Assembly (NCBI GenBank): GCA_963706445.1
Contig: OY970160.1
Location: 800,001-864,000 of the forward strand
Source of the DNA: an uncultured Nitrososphaerales archaeon
GTDB lineage: Archaea > Thermoproteota > Nitrososphaeria > Nitrososphaerales > Gagatemarchaeaceae
Direction of reading: 5' to 3'
Length of the DNA: 64,000 nt
Under the pieces are notes generated by a model that ran no database searches, was not told where the DNA came from, and saw only the letters and a list, made by a program, of their open reading frames with translations. A program made the translations under genes and the position numbers. Position 1 is the stretch's first letter; the number at the start of each line of letters is the position of its first letter. Shown piece after piece: positions 29,876-52,884 of this stretch.

Positions 29876-30487
29876 TCAGGGAGACATTCGACCAGACGTT
29901 GCCGGGAGGAAGCCAAGCTCACCTAGCCTGGCGATGATCATCCTTGCCGAAGTCTTGGCGTCTGAAATCTCAGTGTTGGCCAGAATGTCAGGGGACTCGG
30001 GCTCCTCATAGGGGTCCTGGATGCCCGTCATGTTTGTTATCTCCCCCTTCCTCGCCTTCTTGTAGAGCCCCTTGGGGTCCCGCTTCTCGCAGGCTTCGAG
30101 TGATGCCTTCACAAATACTTCCACAAACCTTTCCTTCCCGATGACGTCCCTCGCCTCCGCCCGGGACTTCCTATAGGGCGATATCAATGCAACAATCCCT
30201 ATCACTCCGTTCTTGGCCAGTAGTTTGCCTACGAACGAGACACGCCTGGCGTGCTCCTGTCTGTCTTCCTTCGACAGACCCAGGTCGCGCGATATTCCCT
30301 TTCGGAATTCATCTCCGTCCAGGATTTCCACGTATCTCCCGAACTCTCCTTCAAGCATCTCCTCAAGGATCATGGCCAGGGTAGTCTTACCCGACCCTGG
30401 CAGTCCAGTCATCCAGAGAACGAACCCTTCTGGCTTTCCTATCACGAGGGCCCCCTCCCCAGAGCCGTACTTCCCTGTTACCTCCAC
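29876..30487 (-). CDS. cysC: adenylyl-sulfate kinase
   Basis: WMTGLPGSGKTT, LDGDEFR, ISPY, RDPKGLYKKARKGEI, TGIQDPYEEP. Confidence 0.97.
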   Translation of the reverse strand: MEVTGKYGSGEGALVIGKPEGFVLWMTGLPGSGKTTLAMILEEMLEGEFGRYVEILDGDEFRKGISRDLGLSKEDRQEHARRVSFVGKLLAKNGVIGIVALISPYRKSRAEARDVIGKERFVEVFVKASLEACEKRDPKGLYKKARKGEITNMTGIQDPYEEPESPDILANTEISDAKTSARMIIARLGELGFLPATSGRMSP

Positions 30488-30488
30488 C

Positions 30489-31961
30489 CTATGCCCCCTC
30501 CTGTTGAATCGGAAGAGGACTTCCGCATAGACCCTGTCCCAGTTCCCCCTCGTCGATCCCGTACAACCTTAGCAGCGTCGGGGCGATGTCCGCGATCTTC
30601 GCTCCCTTCAACTCCCTTCCACCTAGGTCGGCCTTGGGGTCAGACATAAGAAATATTCCCTTCATAGAATGGACCGAGTCATCGGGCCCGGTGTCGTTCT
30701 CGAAGAGGTAGTTCGAATCGTGCCCGACCGTGCCAGCTGACCTCCAATTGAGGTCGTCGAAGTAGACCATCAGGTCTGGTTTGTCCCCGATGGCTGTTCC
30801 ATAGAGTTGGGTAGGCTCTAGCACGGAGTTCTTCATCACCTTCCCCTTGTCGTCTTTGATTTGAAGAATCCGTCGCTTCAATTCCATCTTCTCTGCTTCG
30901 AAGTCCATTGGCTCGACTACCCCGCTTGGTTCCCGGCCCTTGACGTTGAAGAATATCCTTGCGTAATATCCGCCCCACCCCCAGGCTCTCGTCTTCTCCC
31001 AGTCAACCTGTGCCTTCTCTATGTCTGACCCCTTCATGGGCGGGAACTTGAACTTCAGGTACCCCTGCTCCACCAGCCACTGGTTCACACAGAATGCCCC
31101 CTGCATTCCCTTTGATCCGTGGTCTGAAAGGATGAATGTGAGACAATCCTCGCCAAAGATCTCGATCAACCTGCCAATCCTTTCGTCGACCATCTGGTAG
31201 TACTCCCTGTCTATCTGTTCGTACTGGGTCCCTTTCACATACTTGGGGTGAGTTGGATCGAAGAACTTCCAGAACGCGTGGTGGAGCCGGTCGAAGCCTA
31301 TTTCATGCATCATGAAGAAGTCCCAAGGTCTTGTCTTTGCAAGATGCTCTGCGACATCGAAGCGCCTGCGGGTCATGTCGAAAAGCTGGGTCTTCAGTGT
31401 GTCTCGATTGTCTGTCCTGAAGGTGACGTCGAACACATAGTTCCCGCCACTCGCAGCCAGAACCTCAGTTTTCAGCTCAGGAGGAGATGTGAACTCTCTG
31501 TCCGGGCTCGGAGTGAGAAAGCACGAAACCCCCTCGACGCCGGGGATTGCCCTTGGAGGATACGAAGGAGGGACGCCCAGTACGACGCTCTTCATCCCGT
31601 GAGACCCAAGGATCTCCCAGACCGTCTTCTCCTTCACCGAGGTTGAGTTTACGATGTATCCATCTGAGTAGGCGTTCCCCCTTCTGTGCCTGAACCCATA
31701 GATTCCAAGTCGGCCCGGATTTTTGCCTGTCATCATCACCATCCACGCAGGTATGGTAATAGGGGGGTCACACGTTTCCAGTTCCCCGTGCAGGCCCTTT
31801 TCGTAAAGGCGCCGAATGTTGGGGAGTTTGTCCAGCAGCTTCGAGAACATCATTTCTGGTGGAACGGAATCGAGTCCAATTACGGCAACTTTTCGTTTCA
31901 AGTCAGAGACACCATCGGCGCCGATGAAATACGGGGCATCCTCGAAGAAGTTTTTGACCAT
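30489..31961 (-). CDS. alkaline phosphatase superfamily protein (COG3379/NPP-like), Thr nucleophile
   Basis: IGLDS, PPITIPAW, TGKNPG, DRLHH, SDHG, GPDDSVH; 1 bp from cysC. Confidence 0.9.
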   Translation of the reverse strand: MVKNFFEDAPYFIGADGVSDLKRKVAVIGLDSVPPEMMFSKLLDKLPNIRRLYEKGLHGELETCDPPITIPAWMVMMTGKNPGRLGIYGFRHRRGNAYSDGYIVNSTSVKEKTVWEILGSHGMKSVVLGVPPSYPPRAIPGVEGVSCFLTPSPDREFTSPPELKTEVLAASGGNYVFDVTFRTDNRDTLKTQLFDMTRRRFDVAEHLAKTRPWDFFMMHEIGFDRLHHAFWKFFDPTHPKYVKGTQYEQIDREYYQMVDERIGRLIEIFGEDCLTFILSDHGSKGMQGAFCVNQWLVEQGYLKFKFPPMKGSDIEKAQVDWEKTRAWGWGGYYARIFFNVKGREPSGVVEPMDFEAEKMELKRRILQIKDDKGKVMKNSVLEPTQLYGTAIGDKPDLMVYFDDLNWRSAGTVGHDSNYLFENDTGPDDSVHSMKGIFLMSDPKADLGGRELKGAKIADIAPTLLRLYGIDEGELGQGLCGSPLPIQQEGA

Positions 31962-32095: not shown

Positions 32096-32875
32096 TCACA
32101 GCTTCTTCTGGGTTATTGAGAACACGCAGGCGGGCGCCCCTTTCAGGACGCACTTCACTTCGGTTGATACTGCGGTGAATCCGTAGACCTTCTCAACTGC
32201 CCCAGTCAGATAACCCCGCATGAAGTTGCACCCTGTCCTGGACTTGGCCCCCTCTGAGCATTCGAAGCAATCCCTTACTTCTACGGAGAAGGAACCGTCC
32301 TTTTCGCTGGTCTTGGAACTGAGGACCCCCCACCCCTGGGCCGAGAGTAGCCTTCTCAGCACCCCAACCTGAGCTTTGACCCGCTCCGATCCTAGCAGAT
32401 TGAACATGTCCTCGGCATTCCTCTGGCTGAGGGTGTAGCCCTCCTGGTAAAGAAGCGCCTCCCCTCCGCTCCCGAGCGTCTTCGCCACATGGTCGAACAT
32501 ATGCGTCAAGCCATCCCGTCTGAAGAGCATGTAGTCTTCATCGTCGACGACGATGCCGGTGTGGAATGTATCAACCAGAAGCCCGTCCTTTCCGCTGGCG
32601 ACCACCACTTCCATGGCCGCCTTTGAGGCGTCGATGAGCTTCTCGAGATCCTTCGGACCTTGACCTTTGACGATGGACTCCGCGAAGCCGCTGAACATGG
32701 CGGTCCCGTCGCTGAGTGAATAGGTTGTCGTTCCGATCAGATTCACCTTGGAACTGAGTAGTTCAAGTATTGAGCTGTATGACCCGGGCTCGTCCGATAG
32801 CTTGACCACTATCTGGAACAATTCCTTCCCGGGTGCATAGTGCAAAGGAAAGGTCCTCTTCTTGACTTCTTTCAT
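32096..32875 (-). CDS. ACT-like plus V4R domain protein
   Basis: VKLSDEPG; GWG, DCFEC, CNFMRGYLTG, EVKC..G..AC. Confidence 0.85.
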   Translation of the reverse strand: MKEVKKRTFPLHYAPGKELFQIVVKLSDEPGSYSSILELLSSKVNLIGTTTYSLSDGTAMFSGFAESIVKGQGPKDLEKLIDASKAAMEVVVASGKDGLLVDTFHTGIVVDDEDYMLFRRDGLTHMFDHVAKTLGSGGEALLYQEGYTLSQRNAEDMFNLLGSERVKAQVGVLRRLLSAQGWGVLSSKTSEKDGSFSVEVRDCFECSEGAKSRTGCNFMRGYLTGAVEKVYGFTAVSTEVKCVLKGAPACVFSITQKKL

Positions 32876-36052: not shown

Positions 36053-37693
36053 TCAGAGTCTCTTTCCAGATCTCACCACGGCCCTAGTTGCATCCTGCAG
36101 GGCGTTGGCAGAACCTTCTCTCATGTATCTGACCGGGCCCATAGCCAGTTCGCCGTCCCGAGTAAACAACCCCGACAGGACCTTCCCGTCCATGTCCGAC
36201 GGGACTTCGACCCCGAGGATGTGCAAGATAGTGGGTGGCAGGTCGATAAGTGAAGCGTCTTCAAAAGTCGGTGTCTGAACCAGTCCTTCTCCCGCGGCAA
36301 TCAGGACCCCGTCCATCCGGTGACTCCCCGAGTATATGGGGTCGGGGGAGATCATCTTGCGGCTCCCGAACTCGAATAGCCTGTGGGCCCTGTAGGTCAT
36401 GGTGCTGTCGAAGAACACAATGTCCGGTGCGGCGTCGAAGCATGGCCCCGAGTAGATCTCATCTTTCGAGTAAATGATGTCGAACAGAATCCTCCCTGTC
36501 TTGGGGTCTCGGAGTGCCGCCACCTTTGACTTGAGTTCCTGTAGCAGACCCGGAGCTTTCGCAGGGTCGAGCTTCCCTCTCGGCTCTCGGCCTTTGATGT
36601 TGAGGAAGAATTGCCCGTAGTTTCCGTAAGAATAGACCAGCGTCTCGTCCCAGTCGATGTCGTCCAAGGATAGGGAGACTTTCTTCGCAAGCTCCAGGCT
36701 CCTTGATTTCTTCCCGTAAGCATAGGTCCTCGAACCCACGAGCCCGAGACTCTTTGCAGCGCGGAAGAGGAAGTCCGTTGTGATGCCCACCTTGAAGAAT
36801 GCCCTCCTTACCCTGGTCCCAGTGCTCCGTCTGAGCCTAAGGTACCCATTGTCCAGGAGCCAATTGTTCATGTAGACAGCATAGTAGACAGGGCCGAAAC
36901 CGTGGTCGGAGATCACGAAAACCCTGTCGTCAGGTGACAGGTCAGACATGACCTCTCCGAAGGCCGAATCGACGGCGTCGTAGACATCGTAGAAGAGGGG
37001 GCCGAATTTCGAAGCCTTGGCAGGGTCGTATTTCGGATTGTCTTTATCGATGTACCTCCAATAGAAGTGGCTGACTACGTCGGTCGCGTCAAACACTGTA
37101 ACAATAAGGTCCCATTCGTCCTTCTTCATCAGGTGGCGGACCACGCGTGCTTGGTCCTTTGTAATGGTGAGCATGTCATCGAAGAGCTTGAGCTCGTCTC
37201 CTGGCTTCAGGAAGTGAGGGCTTGGCTTGTGGAGATGGGTGATGCCGAGCTCTTTCTCGACTTCTGTGAGCACCTCCCGCGGGATTGCGAAGTCTCGCCT
37301 TGTTTCAGGGTAGGGAAACCCAGAGATCATAGTCCCATTGACCGGCTCAGGGGGGTAGGTCAGAGGCACGTTCACTATGAGGCATTTCTTCCCTCTGGCA
37401 GACGCATACTGCCATAGTGTTCTCCCTTTTCTGTCAAGGGACGAAACCGGGGCGTAGGTATAGGTGCCGGGGACCCTTGTCGAGAAATCATAGATACCGT
37501 GCTTCCCGGGATTCTTTCCGGTGGCGAAGGTGTTCCAGGCTGTGGCAGACAGGGGGAGGATTGTGGACCTTAGACTCCCCATGGTTCCATGTGCGGCCAG
37601 CCCGCTGAAGTTCTTCAAGCGTCCCTGGGCCATCATCGGCTTCATGATGTCGAGGGTGGCGCCGTCGAGTCCGACTACGACTACCTTTGGCAA
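36053..37693 (-). CDS. alkaline phosphatase superfamily protein (COG3379/NPP-like), Ser nucleophile
   Basis: GLDGAT, STILPLSATAW, TGKNPGKHG, DVVSH, SDHGFG, GSHRMDG. Confidence 0.92.
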   Translation of the reverse strand: MPKVVVVGLDGATLDIMKPMMAQGRLKNFSGLAAHGTMGSLRSTILPLSATAWNTFATGKNPGKHGIYDFSTRVPGTYTYAPVSSLDRKGRTLWQYASARGKKCLIVNVPLTYPPEPVNGTMISGFPYPETRRDFAIPREVLTEVEKELGITHLHKPSPHFLKPGDELKLFDDMLTITKDQARVVRHLMKKDEWDLIVTVFDATDVVSHFYWRYIDKDNPKYDPAKASKFGPLFYDVYDAVDSAFGEVMSDLSPDDRVFVISDHGFGPVYYAVYMNNWLLDNGYLRLRRSTGTRVRRAFFKVGITTDFLFRAAKSLGLVGSRTYAYGKKSRSLELAKKVSLSLDDIDWDETLVYSYGNYGQFFLNIKGREPRGKLDPAKAPGLLQELKSKVAALRDPKTGRILFDIIYSKDEIYSGPCFDAAPDIVFFDSTMTYRAHRLFEFGSRKMISPDPIYSGSHRMDGVLIAAGEGLVQTPTFEDASLIDLPPTILHILGVEVPSDMDGKVLSGLFTRDGELAMGPVRYMREGSANALQDATRAVVRSGKRL

Positions 37694-37747: not shown

Positions 37748-37999
37748 TTACATGTACCCGAGGTCTCTGAGCCTCTGCTCAACTGAAGCCTGGTCCTCTT
37801 TGGAGAAGACGTTCTCGGACTGCTTTGCCTCCTGAGGGTGTCCGCCTTCGAGTTCCGCGACGACCTGCTCGACCACATAGGTGACGTACTCATCGAGGGT
37901 CTTGAAGTCGCTCCCCACCAGCCTGCGTTTGACCCTTTCGGCTAAAGCTGAAGGTATATTGACTACAACCGTGTCTGACCTATCCAAGGTTGAAGGCAC
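37748..37999 (-). CDS. CopG/RHH protein with C-terminal RLRDLGY tail
   Basis: VVVNIPSALAERVK..FKTLDEYVTYVV; FSKEDQASVEQRLRDLGYM. Confidence 0.85.
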   Translation of the reverse strand: MPSTLDRSDTVVVNIPSALAERVKRRLVGSDFKTLDEYVTYVVEQVVAELEGGHPQEAKQSENVFSKEDQASVEQRLRDLGYM

Positions 38000-38201
38000 G
38001 GCTCAAAAGTCCTCTTTAACGGTTTTGTCGGTTATTATGGAGGTTTTTTTCTGAAAACTCACAGGAATCAACCTGTAGGGCCTGGACCGAGGAGCCGGGA
38101 ATAATCTTCGCCACAACCTCGCAATCTAGGCCAAGCCATAACCCAGCCTGAGGGATTCGGCAAACGAATCGCTTTAATTGATAGGGATGGTCCCCACGAA
38201 C

Positions 38202-38714
38202 ATGCGCAGCGGCGAAGACCCCAAGCTGGACGAACTCGACCTGTGGCTGGTGGAAGCGTTGATCGAAAATCCCGACATCAAGTTCAAGGCCCTCGCCACA
38301 AGGATCGGGTCGGACCAGCGCACCATAGCAAAGAGGATAAAGTCTCTAAAGGAGTCAGGGGTCATCAAGCTAGGAGTTGAGGTAGACTGGGCGGGCCTCG
38401 GATTGCAGGCCAGGGCCTTCGTCGGCTCCGACACAGCACTGGGTGAGAAGGCCGTCGCAAAACTGATCGAATTCCTCCGTTCCGACCCCAGGATTATCGA
38501 AGCCTACCAGACGGTAGGGACCAACGAATACGTGATGTATGTGATAGAGAAGGACCTGCCGAGCCTCAGAGATTCCGTCCTCAATGACCTGGAGCCTCTC
38601 ACCGCGGACCTCAAGACAAGCGTTATCGCGTCGGAGATAAAGCGGAAGGATCAGCTTTCTCTGATACGGTATCTGAGGACGCTTAGATATCCCAGAAGCA
38701 TCTCGAAGCCTTAG
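38202..38714 (+). CDS. Lrp/AsnC family transcriptional regulator
   Basis: LDELDL, DQRTIAKRIKSLKESGVI, YQTVGTNEY. Confidence 0.88.
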   Translation: MRSGEDPKLDELDLWLVEALIENPDIKFKALATRIGSDQRTIAKRIKSLKESGVIKLGVEVDWAGLGLQARAFVGSDTALGEKAVAKLIEFLRSDPRIIEAYQTVGTNEYVMYVIEKDLPSLRDSVLNDLEPLTADLKTSVIASEIKRKDQLSLIRYLRTLRYPRSISKP

Positions 38715-38838
38715 ACGAGTACCGGAGTCGACGCTTCCGCGGTTCCTTTCTTGGATTCAGCCCAGTGGACTTATAATGCCTAGGTGATTATCGCGAAATG
38801 GAGGCCCCGCCCATACAGACCATTCGGATATCTGATCC

Positions 38839-39717
38839 TTGATCCTCGACACCGCTACAATCCTGCCTCTCTTGGTCCTGTTTGCCCTTGGATTCCTCAC
38901 CGGAGGCCTTTCAAACGTGACCAGCGGAGGAGCTGGAATATTCACGATCTACTACCTCACGAACTACGAGGGGCTTGTGATTCAAGATTCAACGGGGACG
39001 GTGCTGGCTGCTTCCGCCCTGATGGTTCTTGTTGGGGCAATCGCTTTCTACAGAAAGAAACAGGTCAATACGCAATTGGCCATTACGGTGGGCGTTTCAG
39101 GTGTGCTGAGCGCCTTCCTCGCCGCCAGGTGGGCATCTACGCTTCAATCGTCTTCTCTCGAAGAAGCTTTCGGGGCTTTCACCCTGGTGCTGGCCTTCTA
39201 CACAGCGCTAAAGTTCACCAACGATTGGCGAAATGAGAAGAGAAAGGCTCCGACGGCGGATTCGGCAATCGCCTCAGGAAACATTGCTCGGCCATCATCT
39301 GCCGGATTAAGTCAACCGTCGAGGTGGGCAGGGAGGACCCCCGCGGCCCTGGCGGTTCAGATTGCGAAGGGGCTCCTCATAGGCGCGGCCACCGGTCTCT
39401 TCGGTGTTGGACTCGCGAGTCTGAGCGTGGTCCTGTTCTTCCTCCTCTTCAAACTTGACACGAAGGTGATCCTTGGGACCAGCCTTTTCGCTTCCTTCTT
39501 CAGGTATCTCGGGGGGGCCGCGGGCTATCTTACTACAGGAGAGATCGACCCCCTCTTCTTCCTGATTCTGGTTGTCGGTGGCGGGCTGGGGAGCTTCATA
39601 GGGGCGCGCATTCTGCTCGGAGGAGGGCGGGGGTCGAAGGACATCTACGTGAAAATCATAGTGGTGGGCATACTGGTCTTCATCAGCTACGAATTCTTCC
39701 TCAAGCATCTCATTTGA
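38839..39717 (+). CDS. TauE/SafE family transporter
   Basis: GFLTGGLS..GGAG, GAATGLFGVG, GTSLF; 8 TM. Confidence 0.85.
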   Translation: MILDTATILPLLVLFALGFLTGGLSNVTSGGAGIFTIYYLTNYEGLVIQDSTGTVLAASALMVLVGAIAFYRKKQVNTQLAITVGVSGVLSAFLAARWASTLQSSSLEEAFGAFTLVLAFYTALKFTNDWRNEKRKAPTADSAIASGNIARPSSAGLSQPSRWAGRTPAALAVQIAKGLLIGAATGLFGVGLASLSVVLFFLLFKLDTKVILGTSLFASFFRYLGGAAGYLTTGEIDPLFFLILVVGGGLGSFIGARILLGGGRGSKDIYVKIIVVGILVFISYEFFLKHLI

Positions 39718-39738
39718 GATAACCCCGGAGGAAATATT

Positions 39739-40887
39739 CTATTCCACGAATGGACTAGGATAGTCGAGGATGACCCGGGATACCTCGGGCCTCATGAACT
39801 CCTTCGGCGGGGTCTCCCCCGCCTGGAACATCTTCCTTAGCTTGGTCCCGCTGAACGTGAGACGGTCCGACTCAGGGTGAGGGCAGATCTTCTCGCTGGC
39901 GATGCCCCCACACCTGTTGCAATAGAAGAACTCCTTGAAGAAGACAGGCTCAATCCCTAAGTCAGGGAACTCCTTGAAGATTTCCTGGGCGGCGTAGGGG
40001 CCGTAGTAGTTGCCCACTCCAGCGTGGTCCCTTCCTATGGCGATGTGAGTGCAGCCAAAGTTCTTTCTCATTATTGCGTGCATGATGGCCTCCTTAGGAC
40101 CGGCATACTGCATCTCGTAGCGGAGGACGCTCAATACGACCGAGTTAGCTGGATAGTAGTTCTTCACCAGGGCCCTATTGGTGTCCAGTATTACGTCGTC
40201 CTTGAAATCCCCTGATTTCTTCTTGCCTATGACCGGATTGATGAAAATACCGTCGGCGAAGGTCAACGCTGTTTTCTGAACGTATTCGTGTCCGATGTGG
40301 GGGGCGTTCCTCGTCTGGAAGGCAACAATTTCTTTCCACCCCCTCTGCCTGAACAGGAACCTCGTCTCCCTTGGGCTCAGAGTGAAGTCCGCGAACTGGT
40401 CGTCGGGCCGTGCGACCACCTGGGTAAGCTTGCCAGCGACCACCACCTCAGAGGATTCGTAGAGCTTTGCCACGCCCGGGTGAGCGGCATCTTCGGTCCC
40501 ATAGACTCTATTCGCGAATTCCTTCTTCGATATCTTATAGCTCTCGCTGAATTCGAGGATGGCGATCGGAGCGCCCGCTTCATCAACCAACGTCACCTCG
40601 TCTCCTGAGGCCCCCTTGAAGTCTGCCGGGACATGGAGGAGGATGGGGATGGTCCACGGGGTGTCGTCATTGAGGCGCATGGAGCCGATGACGCCGTGGT
40701 AGTCTGCTTCGGCCATGAAGCCGTCGAGGGGACTCAGAATCCCGGAGGCGATGTTGTGGACCGTCGTCCTGGTCTCGTCGTCGACCATTATCTTGGGTGC
40801 CGATGCTATTTCCCTAAGCCTCGTATCAGACGGAGAAGTTTCCTTTATGGTGAGCAGCCGGCCACCGTGAGGGAGCGGGTAGGCCAT
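39739..40887 (-). CDS. sat: sulfate adenylyltransferase (ATP sulfurylase)
   Basis: PHGGRL, SPLDGFM, HPGV, AFQTRNAPHIGHE, YAGPKEA, GRDHAGVG, SGTKLR, MRPEV. Confidence 0.98.
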   Translation of the reverse strand: MAYPLPHGGRLLTIKETSPSDTRLREIASAPKIMVDDETRTTVHNIASGILSPLDGFMAEADYHGVIGSMRLNDDTPWTIPILLHVPADFKGASGDEVTLVDEAGAPIAILEFSESYKISKKEFANRVYGTEDAAHPGVAKLYESSEVVVAGKLTQVVARPDDQFADFTLSPRETRFLFRQRGWKEIVAFQTRNAPHIGHEYVQKTALTFADGIFINPVIGKKKSGDFKDDVILDTNRALVKNYYPANSVVLSVLRYEMQYAGPKEAIMHAIMRKNFGCTHIAIGRDHAGVGNYYGPYAAQEIFKEFPDLGIEPVFFKEFFYCNRCGGIASEKICPHPESDRLTFSGTKLRKMFQAGETPPKEFMRPEVSRVILDYPSPFVE

Positions 40888-40902
40888 GCTTTCCCCTGGT
40901 CC

Positions 40903-41139
40903 TTAGATGTAGCCAAGCTTCAAGAGACGGGCCCTGATTTCCTCAGAGTCAGGATCGGAGGACCCCTTCTGGTCCTCTGCTTCGCGGAAAGCTATGGCCC
41001 CCCTGAGCAGTTTCGCAACCTCATCCGAAAGGTTTTCCCTATTGAATCCGATGTGATCCAAGTCAACCAGCTTCCTTACCAATGGAGCAGGTAGTTTGAC
41101 CAAGACTTCCTGGGCGCTATCAGAAATCTGATCGGACAA
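40903..41139 (-). CDS. RHH-like small protein with C-terminal RLLKLGY tail
   Basis: VLVKLPAPLVRKL..LSDEVAKLLR..DSEEIRARLLKLGYI; 15 bp upstream of sat; start trimmed to TTG. Confidence 0.7.
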   Translation of the reverse strand: MSDQISDSAQEVLVKLPAPLVRKLVDLDHIGFNRENLSDEVAKLLRGAIAFREAEDQKGSSDPDSEEIRARLLKLGYI

Positions 41140-41402
41140 CTGTTTTTGCCCGCACTTCCGGCTATATTTGCTTAACTGAATGATTTCATTCGTTAGTATA
41201 TATTTCGGCCCATTTTGCTTATCATCCCGGCCATGGACACGAAAGAAGGCGTCGCAATCTTGGAAGGGCTTCAATTCAAACGGTCCCTGACTCTCGCAAC
41301 TTCGTAATACATTCTCTCGTTTGGATTCAGCTTCATAGGTTTCGTCTCTCAGCACCCTACGATCCATTTCATGAGTATTCGCTACGCCAAAGGATAGAAG
41401 GG

Positions 41403-50932: not shown

Positions 50933-51216
50933 TTGATTCTGCAAAGTCTCGCTGTCTATATCAACGTAGCGGAGAATATGCAATGTTTGTTCTATATTTT
51001 GCGCCACCAATCGACCAGAGGAAAGCGATCGCTCCAGGGTCCCTGAACTCGAAGACCTCTTTCTTTGACATTAATGCTGTTCTTGAATCAAGTCAAACCT
51101 CTAACAGTGGAATAAGACCTCGTCAGTGATAGAACAGCGTTATTCATGCTCGACAATTCTTAAGAAGCATCCCGAACAAATGTGAAAATCAGCAATGAAA
51201 TTGCTTCTTGGTGGCG

Positions 51217-52884
51217 ATGCCGCTGGCTAGCCTCAGGCGGGCTCTAGTCATCGGCCTCGATGGGGCCACCTTCGACCTCATTCGTCCCATGCTTGACAAG
51301 GGGAAGATGCCAAACCTCGCCCGCATGCGGGCTCAGGGCGTGAGCACCGAGCTGAGGTCTACCATATTGCCTCTTTCGCCTCCCGCCTGGACGTCATTCC
51401 TGACCGGCAAGAATCCGGGGGGGCACGGCATCTACGATTTCGCCAAGAGAGTCGAGGGGACCTACGGCTTCGCCCCGACGACCTCCTTGGACATGAAATC
51501 AAGGGCAATCTGGGATGCTATAGAGGAGCACGGAGGGAGCTCGATTATTGTGAACGTCCCCCTTACCTATCCGCCTGCTTCTTTCAAGGGGTTCATGCTC
51601 AGTGGATTTCCGACTCCGACCGAAAGGAAGGATTACACCTATCCTCGGAACCTACTCAAGGAACTCGAGAAGGAATTCGGCGATGTGAACATACACAAGC
51701 CGAAGGTCCTCTACAGGAAGGGGCGGGAACAAGAGATCACCGACGAGACGATAGCGATCACCGAGCAGCAGACAGCTGTGACGAAGTACCTCATGGCGAG
51801 AATTGATTGGAACCTAACAGTTACTGTATATGACGCAACGGATGTCCTAGGTCACTATTTCTGGTCATTTCTGGACCCCAATCACCCGAAGTACGATCCG
51901 AAGATGGCTCCCTTGGTTAGCCAGATGGTGGAGGACATACATGTGTCCCTCGACCAAGCCATAGGTGACCTAACCGCAGCTGTTGGAGATGACGCCCTGA
52001 AGATTGTGATGTCAGACCATGGCTTCGGGCCCGTATACTATGGAGTCTACGTCAACAATTGGCTCGTCTCGGAAGACTACATGAAATTCAAGACGACCAT
52101 GAAGGTGAAAGCCAAGCACTTCGCCTTCAGGAATGGGCTGAACGTGTACAACCTCCTGAGGGTCGCCAGGAGATTGGGCTTGGTGAAGAGCATAGAGTCC
52201 GCCTATTCTTCAAAGTCCACCGCGCTCCGAGTTCTCAACTGGATTTCCCTCGGGTTCGAAGACGTTGACTGGAACAAGACGAGGGTCTATTCCTTTGGAA
52301 ATATGGGGCAGCTATACCTTAATCTTGTAGGAAGGGAACCGAACGGCACTGTAAGACCGGAAGAAGCGGACCTCCTGGTTTCCGAACTCATCCGAAAGCT
52401 CAAGGTGCTTGAGGACCCGGCGACCGGGAAGTCGATGTTCGACATGGTCTACCCGGGGCGCGAAATCTACAGGGGACCCCAAACCACTTCTGCCCCCGAC
52501 GTCGTCTTTCTGGACCAGAGGATGATCTACGCCGCCCACAGGATGTTCGAACTTGGAAGCAGCAAGCTTGTGACACTCCACCCGATATACTCTGGCAATC
52601 ATAAGATGGATGGGATCCTATTCGCCCAAGGGAAGGAGGTCGGAGTAGGGACCCCATTTGAGCATGAGCCCACCATTGTCGATCTCGCCCCCACCATCCT
52701 GCAGTATCTCGGAGTCAGAATCCCGACAGACATGGAAGGAAATGCGATACTGCAGTTGGCGGGCGATCTGCCCCCGCAGGGAGAAGCGTTGGAAAGCTCG
52801 TTCAGGCCCGAATCCCAAAGGGTAGCCCGGGCCGTCAAAGATGTCTTTGCGAGAAAGACGAAAGCGGGGCCAGGGAATCCCTAG
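51217..52884 (+). CDS. alkaline phosphatase superfamily protein (COG3379/NPP-like), Ser nucleophile
   Basis: GLDGAT, STILPLSPPAW, TGKNPG, DVLGH, SDHGFG, GNHKMDG; close paralogue of 36053-37693. Confidence 0.92.
   Translation: MPLASLRRALVIGLDGATFDLIRPMLDKGKMPNLARMRAQGVSTELRSTILPLSPPAWTSFLTGKNPGGHGIYDFAKRVEGTYGFAPTTSLDMKSRAIWDAIEEHGGSSIIVNVPLTYPPASFKGFMLSGFPTPTERKDYTYPRNLLKELEKEFGDVNIHKPKVLYRKGREQEITDETIAITEQQTAVTKYLMARIDWNLTVTVYDATDVLGHYFWSFLDPNHPKYDPKMAPLVSQMVEDIHVSLDQAIGDLTAAVGDDALKIVMSDHGFGPVYYGVYVNNWLVSEDYMKFKTTMKVKAKHFAFRNGLNVYNLLRVARRLGLVKSIESAYSSKSTALRVLNWISLGFEDVDWNKTRVYSFGNMGQLYLNLVGREPNGTVRPEEADLLVSELIRKLKVLEDPATGKSMFDMVYPGREIYRGPQTTSAPDVVFLDQRMIYAAHRMFELGSSKLVTLHPIYSGNHKMDGILFAQGKEVGVGTPFEHEPTIVDLAPTILQYLGVRIPTDMEGNAILQLAGDLPPQGEALESSFRPESQRVARAVKDVFARKTKAGPGNP

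Follow-up and report, generated by a model that had tools for sequence, protein, structure and literature searches.

The window analysed, a stretch of 64,000 nucleotides from an uncultured Nitrososphaerales archaeon, contains two small genes, RHH1 and RHH2, each of which heads an enzyme gene (Table 1). The gene of AP_36k begins 54 nt downstream of RHH1, and sat lies 15 nt downstream of RHH2. The RHH1 protein ends in ...FSKEDQASVEQRLRDLGYM and the RHH2 protein in ...SDPDSEEIRARLLKLGYI. An earlier note on this DNA had claimed that both small proteins end in an RLxxLGY tail and that one of the genes heads an AP gene and the other sat; both claims hold, since the two genes are real and their products close with an acidic helix and RLxxLGY[MI]-COOH. 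For RHH1, the homologues favour an internal TTG start, which would give a protein of 79 aa instead of the 83 aa counted from GTG.

Table 1 Features of the window that bear on the tail-carrying small proteins and their putative partners.
Feature	Position	Strand	Basis
RHH1, small ribbon-helix-helix protein	37748..37999	(-)	ORF, 83 aa from GTG
RHH1 tail-coding segment (FSKEDQASVEQRLRDLGYM)	37751..37807	(-)	conserved across homologues
BRE/TATA-like element GACAAAACCGTTAAAGAGG upstream of RHH1	38011..38029	(-)	conserved; putative promoter role
RHH2, divergent RHH-like small protein, 78 aa, LGY tail	40903..41139	(-)	ORF, TTG start
RHH2 tail-coding segment (SDPDSEEIRARLLKLGYI)	40906..40959	(-)	ORF, homologue P0186 and profile A2
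Two 19-nt direct repeats, 41156-41174 and 41203-41221	41156..41221	(.)	repeat search; candidate operator
sat (ATP sulfurylase)	39739..40887	(-)	Pfam PF01747 and PF14306
cysC (APS kinase)	29876..30487	(-)	NCBIfam TIGR00455
AP_36k, COG3379/PF01663 enzyme without canonical tail	36053..37693	(-)	Pfam E 8.6e-35
AP_36k basic C-terminal helix, putatively degenerate	36056..36118	(-)	MAFFT alignment, 23 AP enzymes
AP_30k, truly tail-less COG3379 enzyme	30489..31961	(-)	Pfam; stops right after AP domain
AP_51k, COG3379 enzyme without canonical tail	51208..52884	(+)	Pfam; C-terminus

In both small proteins, no part of the sequence is better conserved than the tail. Across 34 homologues of RHH1, with identities of 49-85%, the residues S66, D69, R76, L77, L80, G81 and Y82 of the tail are invariant. 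Among the homologues of RHH2, too, the tail is the best-conserved segment; P0186 (78 aa) shows 47% overall identity and a near-identical tail, and RHH2 can itself be aligned with the RHH family (alignment A3). A search of the own genome with a profile of the tail (A2) retrieved RHH1 (E 7e-13) as well as RHH2 (E 2.3e-6). The arrangement in which a gene for a tailed RHH protein precedes sat is also found in 16 metagenome loci and many Nitrososphaeria loci.

The AF2 model of RHH1 consists of an extended segment (residues 5-12), two helices (13-23 and 31-46), a disordered stretch (50-59) and the tail helix (63-76), with pLDDT values of 78-89 for the tail. When this model was compared with 48,161 PDB chains in a VIA structure search, which is independent of Foldseek, the top 50 matches were almost all RHH proteins (Z 4.0-4.8, modest values owing to the small size of the domain, with rmsd 1.3-2.4 over 43-48 residues), including the RHH domain of PutA (Z 4.6, rmsd 1.3 over 44 residues) and NikR (Z 4.8). 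Matches over the whole length included the complexes of ParD, RelB, DinJ, FitA and MazE. The ESM Atlas clusters nearest to the small proteins carry the automatic name CopG family, and together with the model and the structure search this backs the RHH fold that had been proposed from the sequence. No RHH sequence model of Pfam (E ≤ 0.01) or NCBIfam (E ≤ 0.1) matched RHH1 or RHH2. The RHH strand carries polar or basic residues, like the strands with which RHH proteins read DNA, and we infer that RHH1 and RHH2 are DNA-binding regulators, whose predicted layout of RHH domain, disordered linker and C-terminal helix resembles that of type II antitoxins.

The tail helix has an S/T N-cap, hydrophobic residues in the pattern V/I..L..L, a Gly C-cap, and a Tyr and a hydrophobic residue at the carboxy-terminus. 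In RHH1 and RHH2 alike, an acidic S/T-capped helix runs into [IV]xxRLxxLGY, which is followed by one or two residues and the stop codon. We compared 25,560 stop-to-stop ORFs of the genome with 200 shuffles: the extended motif, [DE]..[IVL]xx[RKHQ]LxxLGYx at the very end, occurs three times against a shuffle mean of 0.005, and the bare L..LGY end, with 3 against 1.08 expected (P 0.09), is weakly unusual. In a metagenome scan that was blind to position, all 55 of the 55 tail matches were located one or two residues before a stop codon. AP enzymes of about 560 aa from other phyla end in the same tail as RHH1, and in 120 AP enzymes the conservation of its residues L551, L554, G555 and Y556 reaches at least 90%, level with that of the catalytic residues. 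The claim that the small proteins and AP enzymes have this module in common is therefore borne out, the tail being discrete, strictly C-terminal and strongly conserved. We found no paper in the literature that describes the LGY tail.

Among representative COG3379 (PF01663) clusters, 123 of 150 end in the tail, which corresponds to about 82% of the subfamily. The statement in the earlier note that the tail is a common C-terminus of sulfatases and COG3379 proteins is thus right for COG3379, but no tail was seen on PF00884-only sulfatases. The COG3379 family is very large (at E ≤ 0.001, it is matched by 21,627 clusters formed at 50% identity), and numerous phyla have its members in their polysaccharide and sulfate-activation loci; the literature yielded a single passing mention and no paper characterising it. 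Since the COG3379 enzymes considered here start directly at the AP domain, with no N-terminal extension for a signal peptide, they are probably cytoplasmic. In the AF2 single-chain model of one tailed enzyme (L056; mean pLDDT 94), the linker (86-90) and the tail helix (91) are confidently predicted and there is no disordered stretch, as would be expected of a tail packed on the enzyme; for a conserved helix this is weak evidence, and the tail of RHH1 scores 78-89 as well.

The three AP enzymes of the window match PF01663 with Pfam E-values of about 1e-35 to 1e-43. In alignment A4, which includes AP_36k and AP_51k, D15, D209, D267, H268 and H460 are invariant, and T63 is present in at least 90% of 120 sequences. 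As had been claimed, none of the three ends in the motif; the picture of a plain absence did not hold for AP_36k, which terminates in ...ATRAVVRSGKRL, a basic helix aligned to the tail position of tailed homologues (MAFFT, 23 AP enzymes). The same basic variant was found among non-tailed COG3379 representatives, and judging from the alignment it looks like a degenerate remnant of the tail. A basic C-terminal helix of AP_51k likewise aligns to the tail position. Orthologues of AP_36k are each preceded by an RHH1-type gene in four further loci (L002, L003, L082 and L084). No small tail gene adjoins AP_51k in this genome, and in L004 and L005 its orthologue is followed by an RHH1-type gene. In relatives, AP_30k belongs to an operon of RHH-tail gene, sat, cysC and AP_30k, and in this genome it lies apart from sat. 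A fourth COG3379 paralogue (G000:C1:1277455-1278966) carries the tail in cis and is the third carrier of the motif in the genome.

Tailed AP genes and small tail genes exclude each other at the loci compared, which were collected via the tail itself and include related, non-independent genomes: within 3 kb, a small tail gene was found for none of 30 tailed AP genes and for 9 of the 19 that lack a tail (Fisher P 4.5e-5). Of the 24 complete AP_30k-type genes, none has a tail, and a small tail gene lies within 3 kb of 15. The sulfatase-type neighbours of small tail genes are tail-less as well (13/13). The association of tail-less AP genes with small tail genes, which the earlier note had put forward for checking, is thus indeed present, with neighbours that are tail-less and never tailed. 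Among 201 Nitrososphaeria genomes, 22 contain an orthologue of AP_30k and 20 of these also the tail, the other two being contig fragments of about 1 kb; the largest family (f2, 114 genomes) has no AP_30k orthologue and a single genome with a merely borderline tail match. Four loci (L063, L065, L066 and L109) have no adjoining small tail gene, but a tailed AP paralogue follows AP_30k. Other tail donors adjoin tail-less AP genes elsewhere, namely CysC-tail proteins (L094, L115 and L123) and an ORF of 46 aa which encodes the tail and no RHH domain (L119). Because the small proteins adjoin tail-less enzymes across many genomes, we conclude that the peptide probably links regulator and enzyme.

The tail also terminates APS kinases, one protein of the PAPS-reductase family and one MFS transporter. 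Since it is therefore not specific to AP enzymes, its receptor could be another component of a sulfation or glycan system. The cysC product has a native terminal helix similar in type to the tail (..RMIIARLGELGFL and an extension), the PDB APS kinases 7yq0 and 8a8h end in ...LGYL, and hhalign placed the tail and the CysC terminus in register (94.9%). Both helices share an S.EE N-cap and I/V..L..LGY[LI] at the C-terminus; however, the helix of the APS kinases ends a folded kinase domain with no linker, whereas the tail follows a flexible linker on unrelated proteins. This likeness could reflect homology or convergence. Searched against the PDB, profile A2 did not retrieve APS kinases at E ≤ 10. 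In Acidobacteriota, the enzyme next to the small protein is of the PF00884 sulfatase type and very distant from COG3379, which counts against one conserved receptor surface.

Upstream of RHH1-type genes, the element GACAAAACCGTTAAAGAGG recurs nearly identically in L081 and L082, and with a shorter core, TTGTTAAAGGGG, in L002. RHH2 has a TATA-like box about 25 nt upstream of its TTG start, and the direct repeats span this region. Seven loci of relatives from several families each contain a single copy of a 16-bp palindrome, TAATTATATRYAATTA, which lies immediately upstream of the RHH gene that heads sat and overlaps the promoter of that gene, a position that would suit a DNA-binding autoregulator. 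The palindrome was not found in the 64-kb window, and no operator was found upstream of RHH1.

The best-supported reading, which we put at about an even chance, is that an RHH regulator carrying an enzyme-type tail binds the enzyme of its own operon and thereby feeds back on transcription. RHH1 and RHH2 would then be antitoxin-like regulators in which an RHH domain for dimerisation and DNA binding is joined by a disordered acidic linker to an amphipathic C-terminal helix. In cis, the tail probably folds back onto the body of the COG3379 enzyme; where the enzyme has lost it (AP_30k) or may retain a degenerate form (AP_36k, AP_51k), the neighbouring small protein would provide it. Via its tail, the RHH protein most likely docks on the enzyme, so that the amount or state of the latter would act back on how the sulfate-activation and AP operon is transcribed; the RHH dimer may, in addition, hold two enzyme molecules together. 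More tentatively, the helix could be a portable docking tag, possibly copied from the terminus of APS kinase, that assembles cytoplasmic sulfation and glycan-modification enzymes across Bacteria and Archaea, with RHH repressors reading the amount or substrate state of the AP enzyme in a trigger-enzyme circuit, built like an antitoxin system, in which the enzyme's tail has moved onto the regulator; we consider this wider version possible but doubtful. On an enzyme, a regulator, an APS kinase or a transporter, the tail would be a handle on the assembly or control of COG3379 enzymes.

An unlikely alternative is that the tail binds a third, common partner, such as the APS-kinase core, ATP sulfurylase, a Wzx flippase or another hub, and that its carriers form one sulfation complex. 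The carriers have five unrelated folds and are all tied to PAPS or glycan clusters, which would fit such a hub, as would the in-register similarity to the native CysC helix and three CysC proteins that have a second copy of the tail appended to their native helix. A Wzx flippase gene adjoins tail-bearing genes in the fourth AP locus of this genome, in L019, L021, L023 and L054, and in 9 of 12 acidobacterial loci. However, this explanation alone does not account for the loss of the tail exactly where the adjoining gene encodes a small tail protein, and no candidate receptor is present in every context: bacterial clusters with tailed AP enzymes lack sat and cysC nearby, and the conserved 393-aa protein encoded by the acidobacterial clusters lacks homologues both in the archaeal genome and at tailed-AP loci. 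The failure of profile A2 to retrieve PDB APS kinases also speaks against it. It is rather improbable that the tail is instead a self-associating, Mnt-like helix which lets RHH dimers form tetramers that bind operators cooperatively and which separately oligomerises the enzymes, with no contact between regulator and enzyme. No receptor would be needed, and homotypic interfaces are strongly constrained, in keeping with the extreme conservation; moreover, five acidobacterial and verrucomicrobial genomes have the tail once each, on the small protein only, and in the Nitrososphaeria family f7 two divergent RHH-tail genes share a short intergenic region. Self-association does not, however, predict the anti-correlation of small tail genes with tailed enzymes, nor the tail-only ORF and CysC-tail genes beside tail-less AP genes; a helix of 14 residues is short for a stable bundle, and the linker and tail of the tailed enzyme are confidently placed in a single-chain model that offers no second chain to pair with.

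That the small proteins are detachable enzyme subunits and not transcription factors, the RHH fold serving only to dimerise them and to present two tails, appears to us quite improbable. It would agree with the missing match to a Pfam RHH model, with the tail-only ORF and with Acidobacteriota, where the small gene does not head the operon but lies in its middle, directly after the flippase gene. The DNA-reading character of the strand residues argues against it, as do the archaeal genes, which head operons or are paired divergently, the conserved palindrome over the promoter of the sat-heading type, and the Thermococcales equivalent, which is annotated as a copG regulator (PMC8268124). Mere coincidence, in which amphipathic helices often end in this way and the carriers have no function in common, is strongly disfavoured and very remote: it could draw on the weakly unusual bare end, but it conflicts with the excess of the extended motif, with the strictly terminal matches, with a tail better conserved than the domains to which it is attached, and with its restriction to one functional context.

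The small proteins can be set beside several known systems. The RHH type II antitoxins (ParD, RelB, CcdA, FitA, DinJ and TacA) also combine an N-terminal RHH domain, a disordered linker and a C-terminal helix; there the helix binds the partner, the gene heads the partner's operon, and autoregulation depends on the partner. In contrast to these systems, where the neighbour is a toxin, the small proteins adjoin a metabolic enzyme (of the AP superfamily, or ATP sulfurylase), and the tail is also present in cis on enzymes. An identity as type II antitoxins was rejected, because the downstream genes encode a PF01663 enzyme and ATP sulfurylase, and no toxin family was found among the neighbours (Pfam, NCBIfam). 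In TnrA and GlnR, which are MerR-type factors, a short C-terminal peptide docks on glutamine synthetase, and the state of this 'trigger enzyme' controls DNA binding; in contrast to the tail, that peptide is not known to be a module of the glutamine synthetase family itself. The Mnt repressor has an RHH domain, a linker and a C-terminal tetramerisation helix that pairs with itself. It shares this layout with the small proteins, but the helix of Mnt is not known to be shared with enzymes, whereas the tail is distributed in a complementary manner to the tails of enzymes. The coupling logic is known from antitoxins and from TnrA and glutamine synthetase, but not for archaeal sulfur or glycan metabolism. 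If the favoured reading is true, the pattern would be a clear case in which the transfer of a short peptide module has coupled a regulator to an enzyme; the tail peptide, with 19 residues, can be synthesised.

The fold of the tailed-enzyme model is that of NPP-type enzymes (Xanthomonas NPP, ENPP1/6/7 and phosphonoacetate hydrolase; Foldseek E about 1e-17), with the catalytic Asp, Thr and His columns in common, but these solved relatives lack the acidic linker and the LGY tail. A cluster of copG, sat, DHH pApase, type I phosphodiesterase (NPP), cysC and in part tauE was described for Pyrococcus yayanosii and other archaea (PMC8268124); there, the small copG gene was regarded as a putative regulator and the NPP was guessed to degrade PPi, and the shared tail was not mentioned. 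The published cluster, too, has a small gene of the copG type at the head of sat, an NPP/COG3379 enzyme and cysC, and tauE lies near; in our window, sat, cysC and COG3379 enzymes are likewise present, along with two tauE genes. Unlike the published arrangement, the operon is split here, with RHH2 and sat in one part (39.7-41.1 kb) and AP_30k and cysC in another (29.9-32.0 kb).

Both small RHH proteins of the window, RHH1 and RHH2, end in the LGY tail, an acidic C-terminal helix with the terminal motif RLxxLGY, as the earlier note had described. Their downstream neighbours are the alkaline-phosphatase superfamily enzyme AP_36k and the ATP sulfurylase gene sat, respectively, and the window also encodes two further COG3379 enzymes (AP_30k and AP_51k), cysC, two tauE genes and a ComA-MarR fusion. 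The note had regarded the three AP enzymes as lacking the motif, which holds in so far as none of the three ends in it, but AP_36k and AP_51k keep a basic helix at the tail position, while the C-terminus of AP_30k falls right after the AP domain. The basic helix (e.g. ..RRATRSLLKAGKRL), which is shared by the orthologues of AP_36k and AP_51k, is aligned by MAFFT with the tail position of tailed homologues, i.e. enzymes carrying the tail in cis, and recurs among non-tailed COG3379 representatives. Judged from these sequences, enzymes of the AP_36k/AP_51k type seem to have had a tail of their own that degenerated.

Features of the window (first nine lines), of the source genome (G000) and of loci from relatives and metagenomes (L handles).
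Feature	Location	Strand	Remarks
RHH1	37748-37999	minus	83 aa from GTG; C-terminus ...FSKEDQASVEQRLRDLGYM
RHH2	40903-41139	minus	TTG start, TATA-like box ~25 nt upstream; C-terminus ...SDPDSEEIRARLLKLGYI
AP_36k	36053-37693	minus	PF01663/COG3379; 54 nt downstream of RHH1
AP_30k	30489-31961	minus	COG3379
AP_51k	51208-52884	plus	COG3379
sat	39739-40887	minus	15 nt downstream of RHH2
cysC	29876-30487	minus	APS kinase
V4R-domain MsvR-like protein	32096-32875	minus	
19-nt direct repeat	41156-41174 and 41203-41221		74% identical, 47 nt apart; over TATA-like region upstream of RHH2
Fourth COG3379 enzyme	G000:C1:1277455-1278966		tail in cis (..ILDHLDRLGYR)
Fourth COG3379 enzyme with flippase gene	G000:C1:1275703-1278966 (= L080:5704-8967)		
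16-bp palindrome	L003:9239-9254, L054:12857-12872, L057:2448-2463, L058:3333-3348, L059:7399-7414, L060:6695-6710, L074:9366-9381		TAATTATATRYAATTA
393-aa protein	L010:11397-12578		no Pfam match
PAPS-reductase-family protein	L055:7150-8010	minus	PF01507
MFS nucleoside:H+ symporter	L128:2705-4054		PF03825
Double-tailed APS kinases	L094:451-1131, L115:2083-2685, L123:3386-4066		
46-aa ORF	L119:1779-1919		acidic linker and LGY tail, nothing more

The proposed RHH-like identity of the small proteins was supported at the level of predicted structure. In the AF2 model of RHH1 (46-sequence alignment), an extended N-terminus precedes two helices at residues 13-23 and 31-46, after which come a linker modelled as disordered (50-59, pLDDT below 50) and the helix of the tail (63-76, pLDDT 78-89). 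In a Foldseek-independent structure comparison with 48,161 PDB chains, the top 50 were almost exclusively RHH proteins, including NikR, omega, the PutA RHH, CopA, ParD, TacA, ORF56, AmrZ and Arc; the 19 best matches reached Z 4.0-4.8, the domain-length ones among them with an rmsd of 1.3-2.4 over 43-48 residues. Foldseek on its own gave no significant match for the model, Pfam RHH models did not match the small proteins, and in the ESM Atlas their neighbours carry the automatic name CopG family. Whole-length structural matches of the RHH1 model are RHH antitoxins whose C-terminal helices bind a partner.

Conservation of the small proteins is centered on the tail. In 34 RHH1 homologues (49-85% identity) every invariant column falls within it, and the sole RHH2 homologue has a near-identical tail at an overall identity of 47%. 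The earlier note had named the tail as a common C-terminus of both COG3379 proteins and sulfatases. For the former this proved correct, since 123 of the best 150 representatives of the COG3379 subfamily (50% identity) terminate in L..[LIVM]G[YF] plus 0-2 residues, the others comprising several near variants as well as sequences that stop immediately behind the AP domain or finish with the basic helix. Of PF00884 sulfatases, none with a tail in cis was seen among 13 sulfatase-type neighbours or the tail matches, which is weak evidence given that the scans covered one tail subtype. In a 120-sequence alignment, the conservation of L551, L554, G555 and Y556 is 90% or higher, comparable to that of catalytic residues, and all 55 confirmed metagenome matches of a position-blind peptide pattern sit 1-2 residues ahead of the stop codon. 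The consensus, [FY][ST]xE[ED]xxx[IV][EK]xRL[RK]xLGY[LIM], can be read as an amphipathic helix that is N-capped, has Gly as its C-cap and closes with Tyr plus a hydrophobic residue at the carboxy-terminus. A membrane-targeting amphipathic helix is unlikely, because a strongly acidic run comes before the helix. Since the Tyr is penultimate, a proteasome HbYX- or GQYL-type tail was also considered, and was set aside in view of the Gly before the Tyr and the frequent occurrence of the tail in proteasome-free bacterial phyla. A word-index search, for which the tail is too short, retrieved no longer proteins with the RHH1 tail region, and the PDB holds no solved chain with the tail, nor a structure of any close relative in sequence of RHH1 or a tailed enzyme.

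Two arrangements of tail and enzyme genes were found in relatives. In one, a small RHH-tail gene lies beside tail-less enzymes, the partners being AP_36k/AP_51k orthologues, the operon sat-cysC-AP_30k and PAPS-reductase-family genes, while in Acidobacteriota and Verrucomicrobiota the partner is a PF00884 sulfatase-type enzyme and the small gene is located directly 3' of a flippase gene in a Wzx-dependent polysaccharide cluster. In the other, the tail is in cis on COG3379 enzymes of about 560 aa, which are often arranged in tandem within Wzx/Wzy/GT2/GT4 clusters of Armatimonadota, Chloroflexota and Planctomycetota, and also in some Nitrososphaeria. Over all fetched loci, which were found via the tail itself and are not independent observations, a small tail gene lies within 3 kb of none of the 30 tailed AP genes vs 9 of the 19 tail-less genes of the same subfamily (Fisher P 4.5e-5), in line with the co-occurrence that the earlier note had anticipated; the same applies to 15 of the 24 AP_30k-type genes and 11 of the 13 sulfatase-type neighbours, all of them tail-less. 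In loci indexed by the small tail gene the adjoining enzyme is never tailed, though free to be, and in four loci (L063, L065, L066, L109) where the small gene is not adjacent, AP_30k is followed by a tailed AP paralogue. In 12/12 acidobacterial loci, the small tail gene and the gene of the sulfatase-type enzyme flank one for a conserved 393-aa protein; this protein was rejected as a universal receptor, having no homologue in the archaeal genome or the tailed-AP loci.

Among 201 sampled Nitrososphaeria genomes, 22 have an AP_30k orthologue, 21 a tail-profile match (E<=0.01) and 19 both. G006, an apparent exception, does carry a small tail gene immediately upstream of AP_30k; the last two AP_30k cases without a match are contig fragments of about 1 kb. 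In the largest family (114 genomes) there is no AP_30k orthologue and a single borderline tail match. Neither AP_30k (COG3379) nor the tail gave a match in G169, a genome of the same genus that is listed as 100% complete, which suggests that genes for AP enzymes and for the tail are accessory.

The source genome belongs to a Nitrososphaeria archaeon and consists of one contig of 1.82 Mb. In it, the extended motif terminates 3 of 25,560 stop-to-stop ORFs (0.005 expected from shuffled C-termini), whereas a bare L..LGY end by itself is only weakly unusual. The third of these ORFs encodes a fourth COG3379 enzyme and is directly followed by a Wzx-type flippase gene, an adjacency that recurs in bacterial polysaccharide clusters. 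A generic sorting or secretion signal was rejected, as five bacterial genomes have a single tail each and the three carriers here are RHH1, RHH2 and an AP enzyme of cytoplasmic type.

AP enzymes and RHH proteins are not the only carriers of the tail. It also forms the C-terminus of a PAPS-reductase-family protein and of an MFS nucleoside:H+ symporter, and three APS kinases, each adjoining a tail-less AP-superfamily gene, carry their native terminal helix (..LGELGYI), a short linker and a second, appended tail like a tandem copy. The 46-aa ORF of L119 follows a tail-less AP_30k-type gene, its ATG overlapping the stop codon of that gene; this ORF is either a stand-alone tail peptide or an assembly frameshift. 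The native APS kinase terminus is of the same kind as the tail (PDB 7yq0 and 8a8h end in ...LGYL), and profile-profile comparison aligned tails and CysC termini in register over 17 columns with 94.9% probability, the profiles being very short and both sets chosen to end at the same motif. Since, in addition, the tail profile did not retrieve 7yq0 and 8a8h from the PDB, a derivation of the tail from the CysC terminus is a lead, not a result.

In the best-supported reading, to which we give an even chance, RHH1 and RHH2 are autoregulators with an antitoxin-like architecture, whose C-terminal helix would be the docking helix of the AP enzyme family itself, supplied in trans to enzymes without a tail of their own and thereby coupling the enzyme to transcription. 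Alternatively, a third common partner, i.e. a sulfation complex, might bind the tail, which we regard as rather unlikely, though the range of carriers keeps this model open. That the tail self-associates, as in Mnt, is unlikely, and that its resemblance between small proteins and enzymes is coincidental is extremely improbable; of the rival readings, pure self-association and coincidence are the ones that the complementary distribution of the tail speaks against most strongly. It is quite improbable that the small proteins are detachable subunits with no regulatory role.

As for docking, the AF2 model of L056, a tailed Nitrososphaeria enzyme (120-sequence alignment; mean pLDDT 94, pTM 0.93), has an NPP-type fold and no disordered stretch (linker pLDDT 86-90, tail helix 91), in contrast to the disordered linker of RHH1. 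The model fits a tail that is folded back onto the enzyme body in tailed enzymes. With respect to DNA binding, seven loci from several Nitrososphaeria families contain exactly one copy each of the palindrome TAATTATATRYAATTA, 5-35 nt ahead of the RHH-tail gene that heads sat; it is a candidate operator that overlaps the promoter. It was not found in the 64-kb window, where the operator search yielded only the 19-nt direct repeat upstream of RHH2 and only a promoter-like element upstream of RHH1; a BRE/TATA-like element is common to RHH1-type genes.

The archaeal cluster copG, sat, DHH pApase, type I phosphodiesterase, cysC and (tauE) has been described in a study of the Pyrococcus yayanosii pApase (PMC8268124), in which the small copG gene is a putative regulator, the phosphodiesterase is guessed to remove PPi and the tail goes unmentioned. 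In the literature searched, we found no paper for the tail strings, one irrelevant paper for 'COG3379' and nothing relevant for AP superfamily, sulfotransferase and PAPS combined. Unlike in relatives, the AP_30k and cysC pair of this genome is located apart from sat and has no RHH-tail gene at its head; directly upstream of it lies the gene for the V4R-domain MsvR-like protein.
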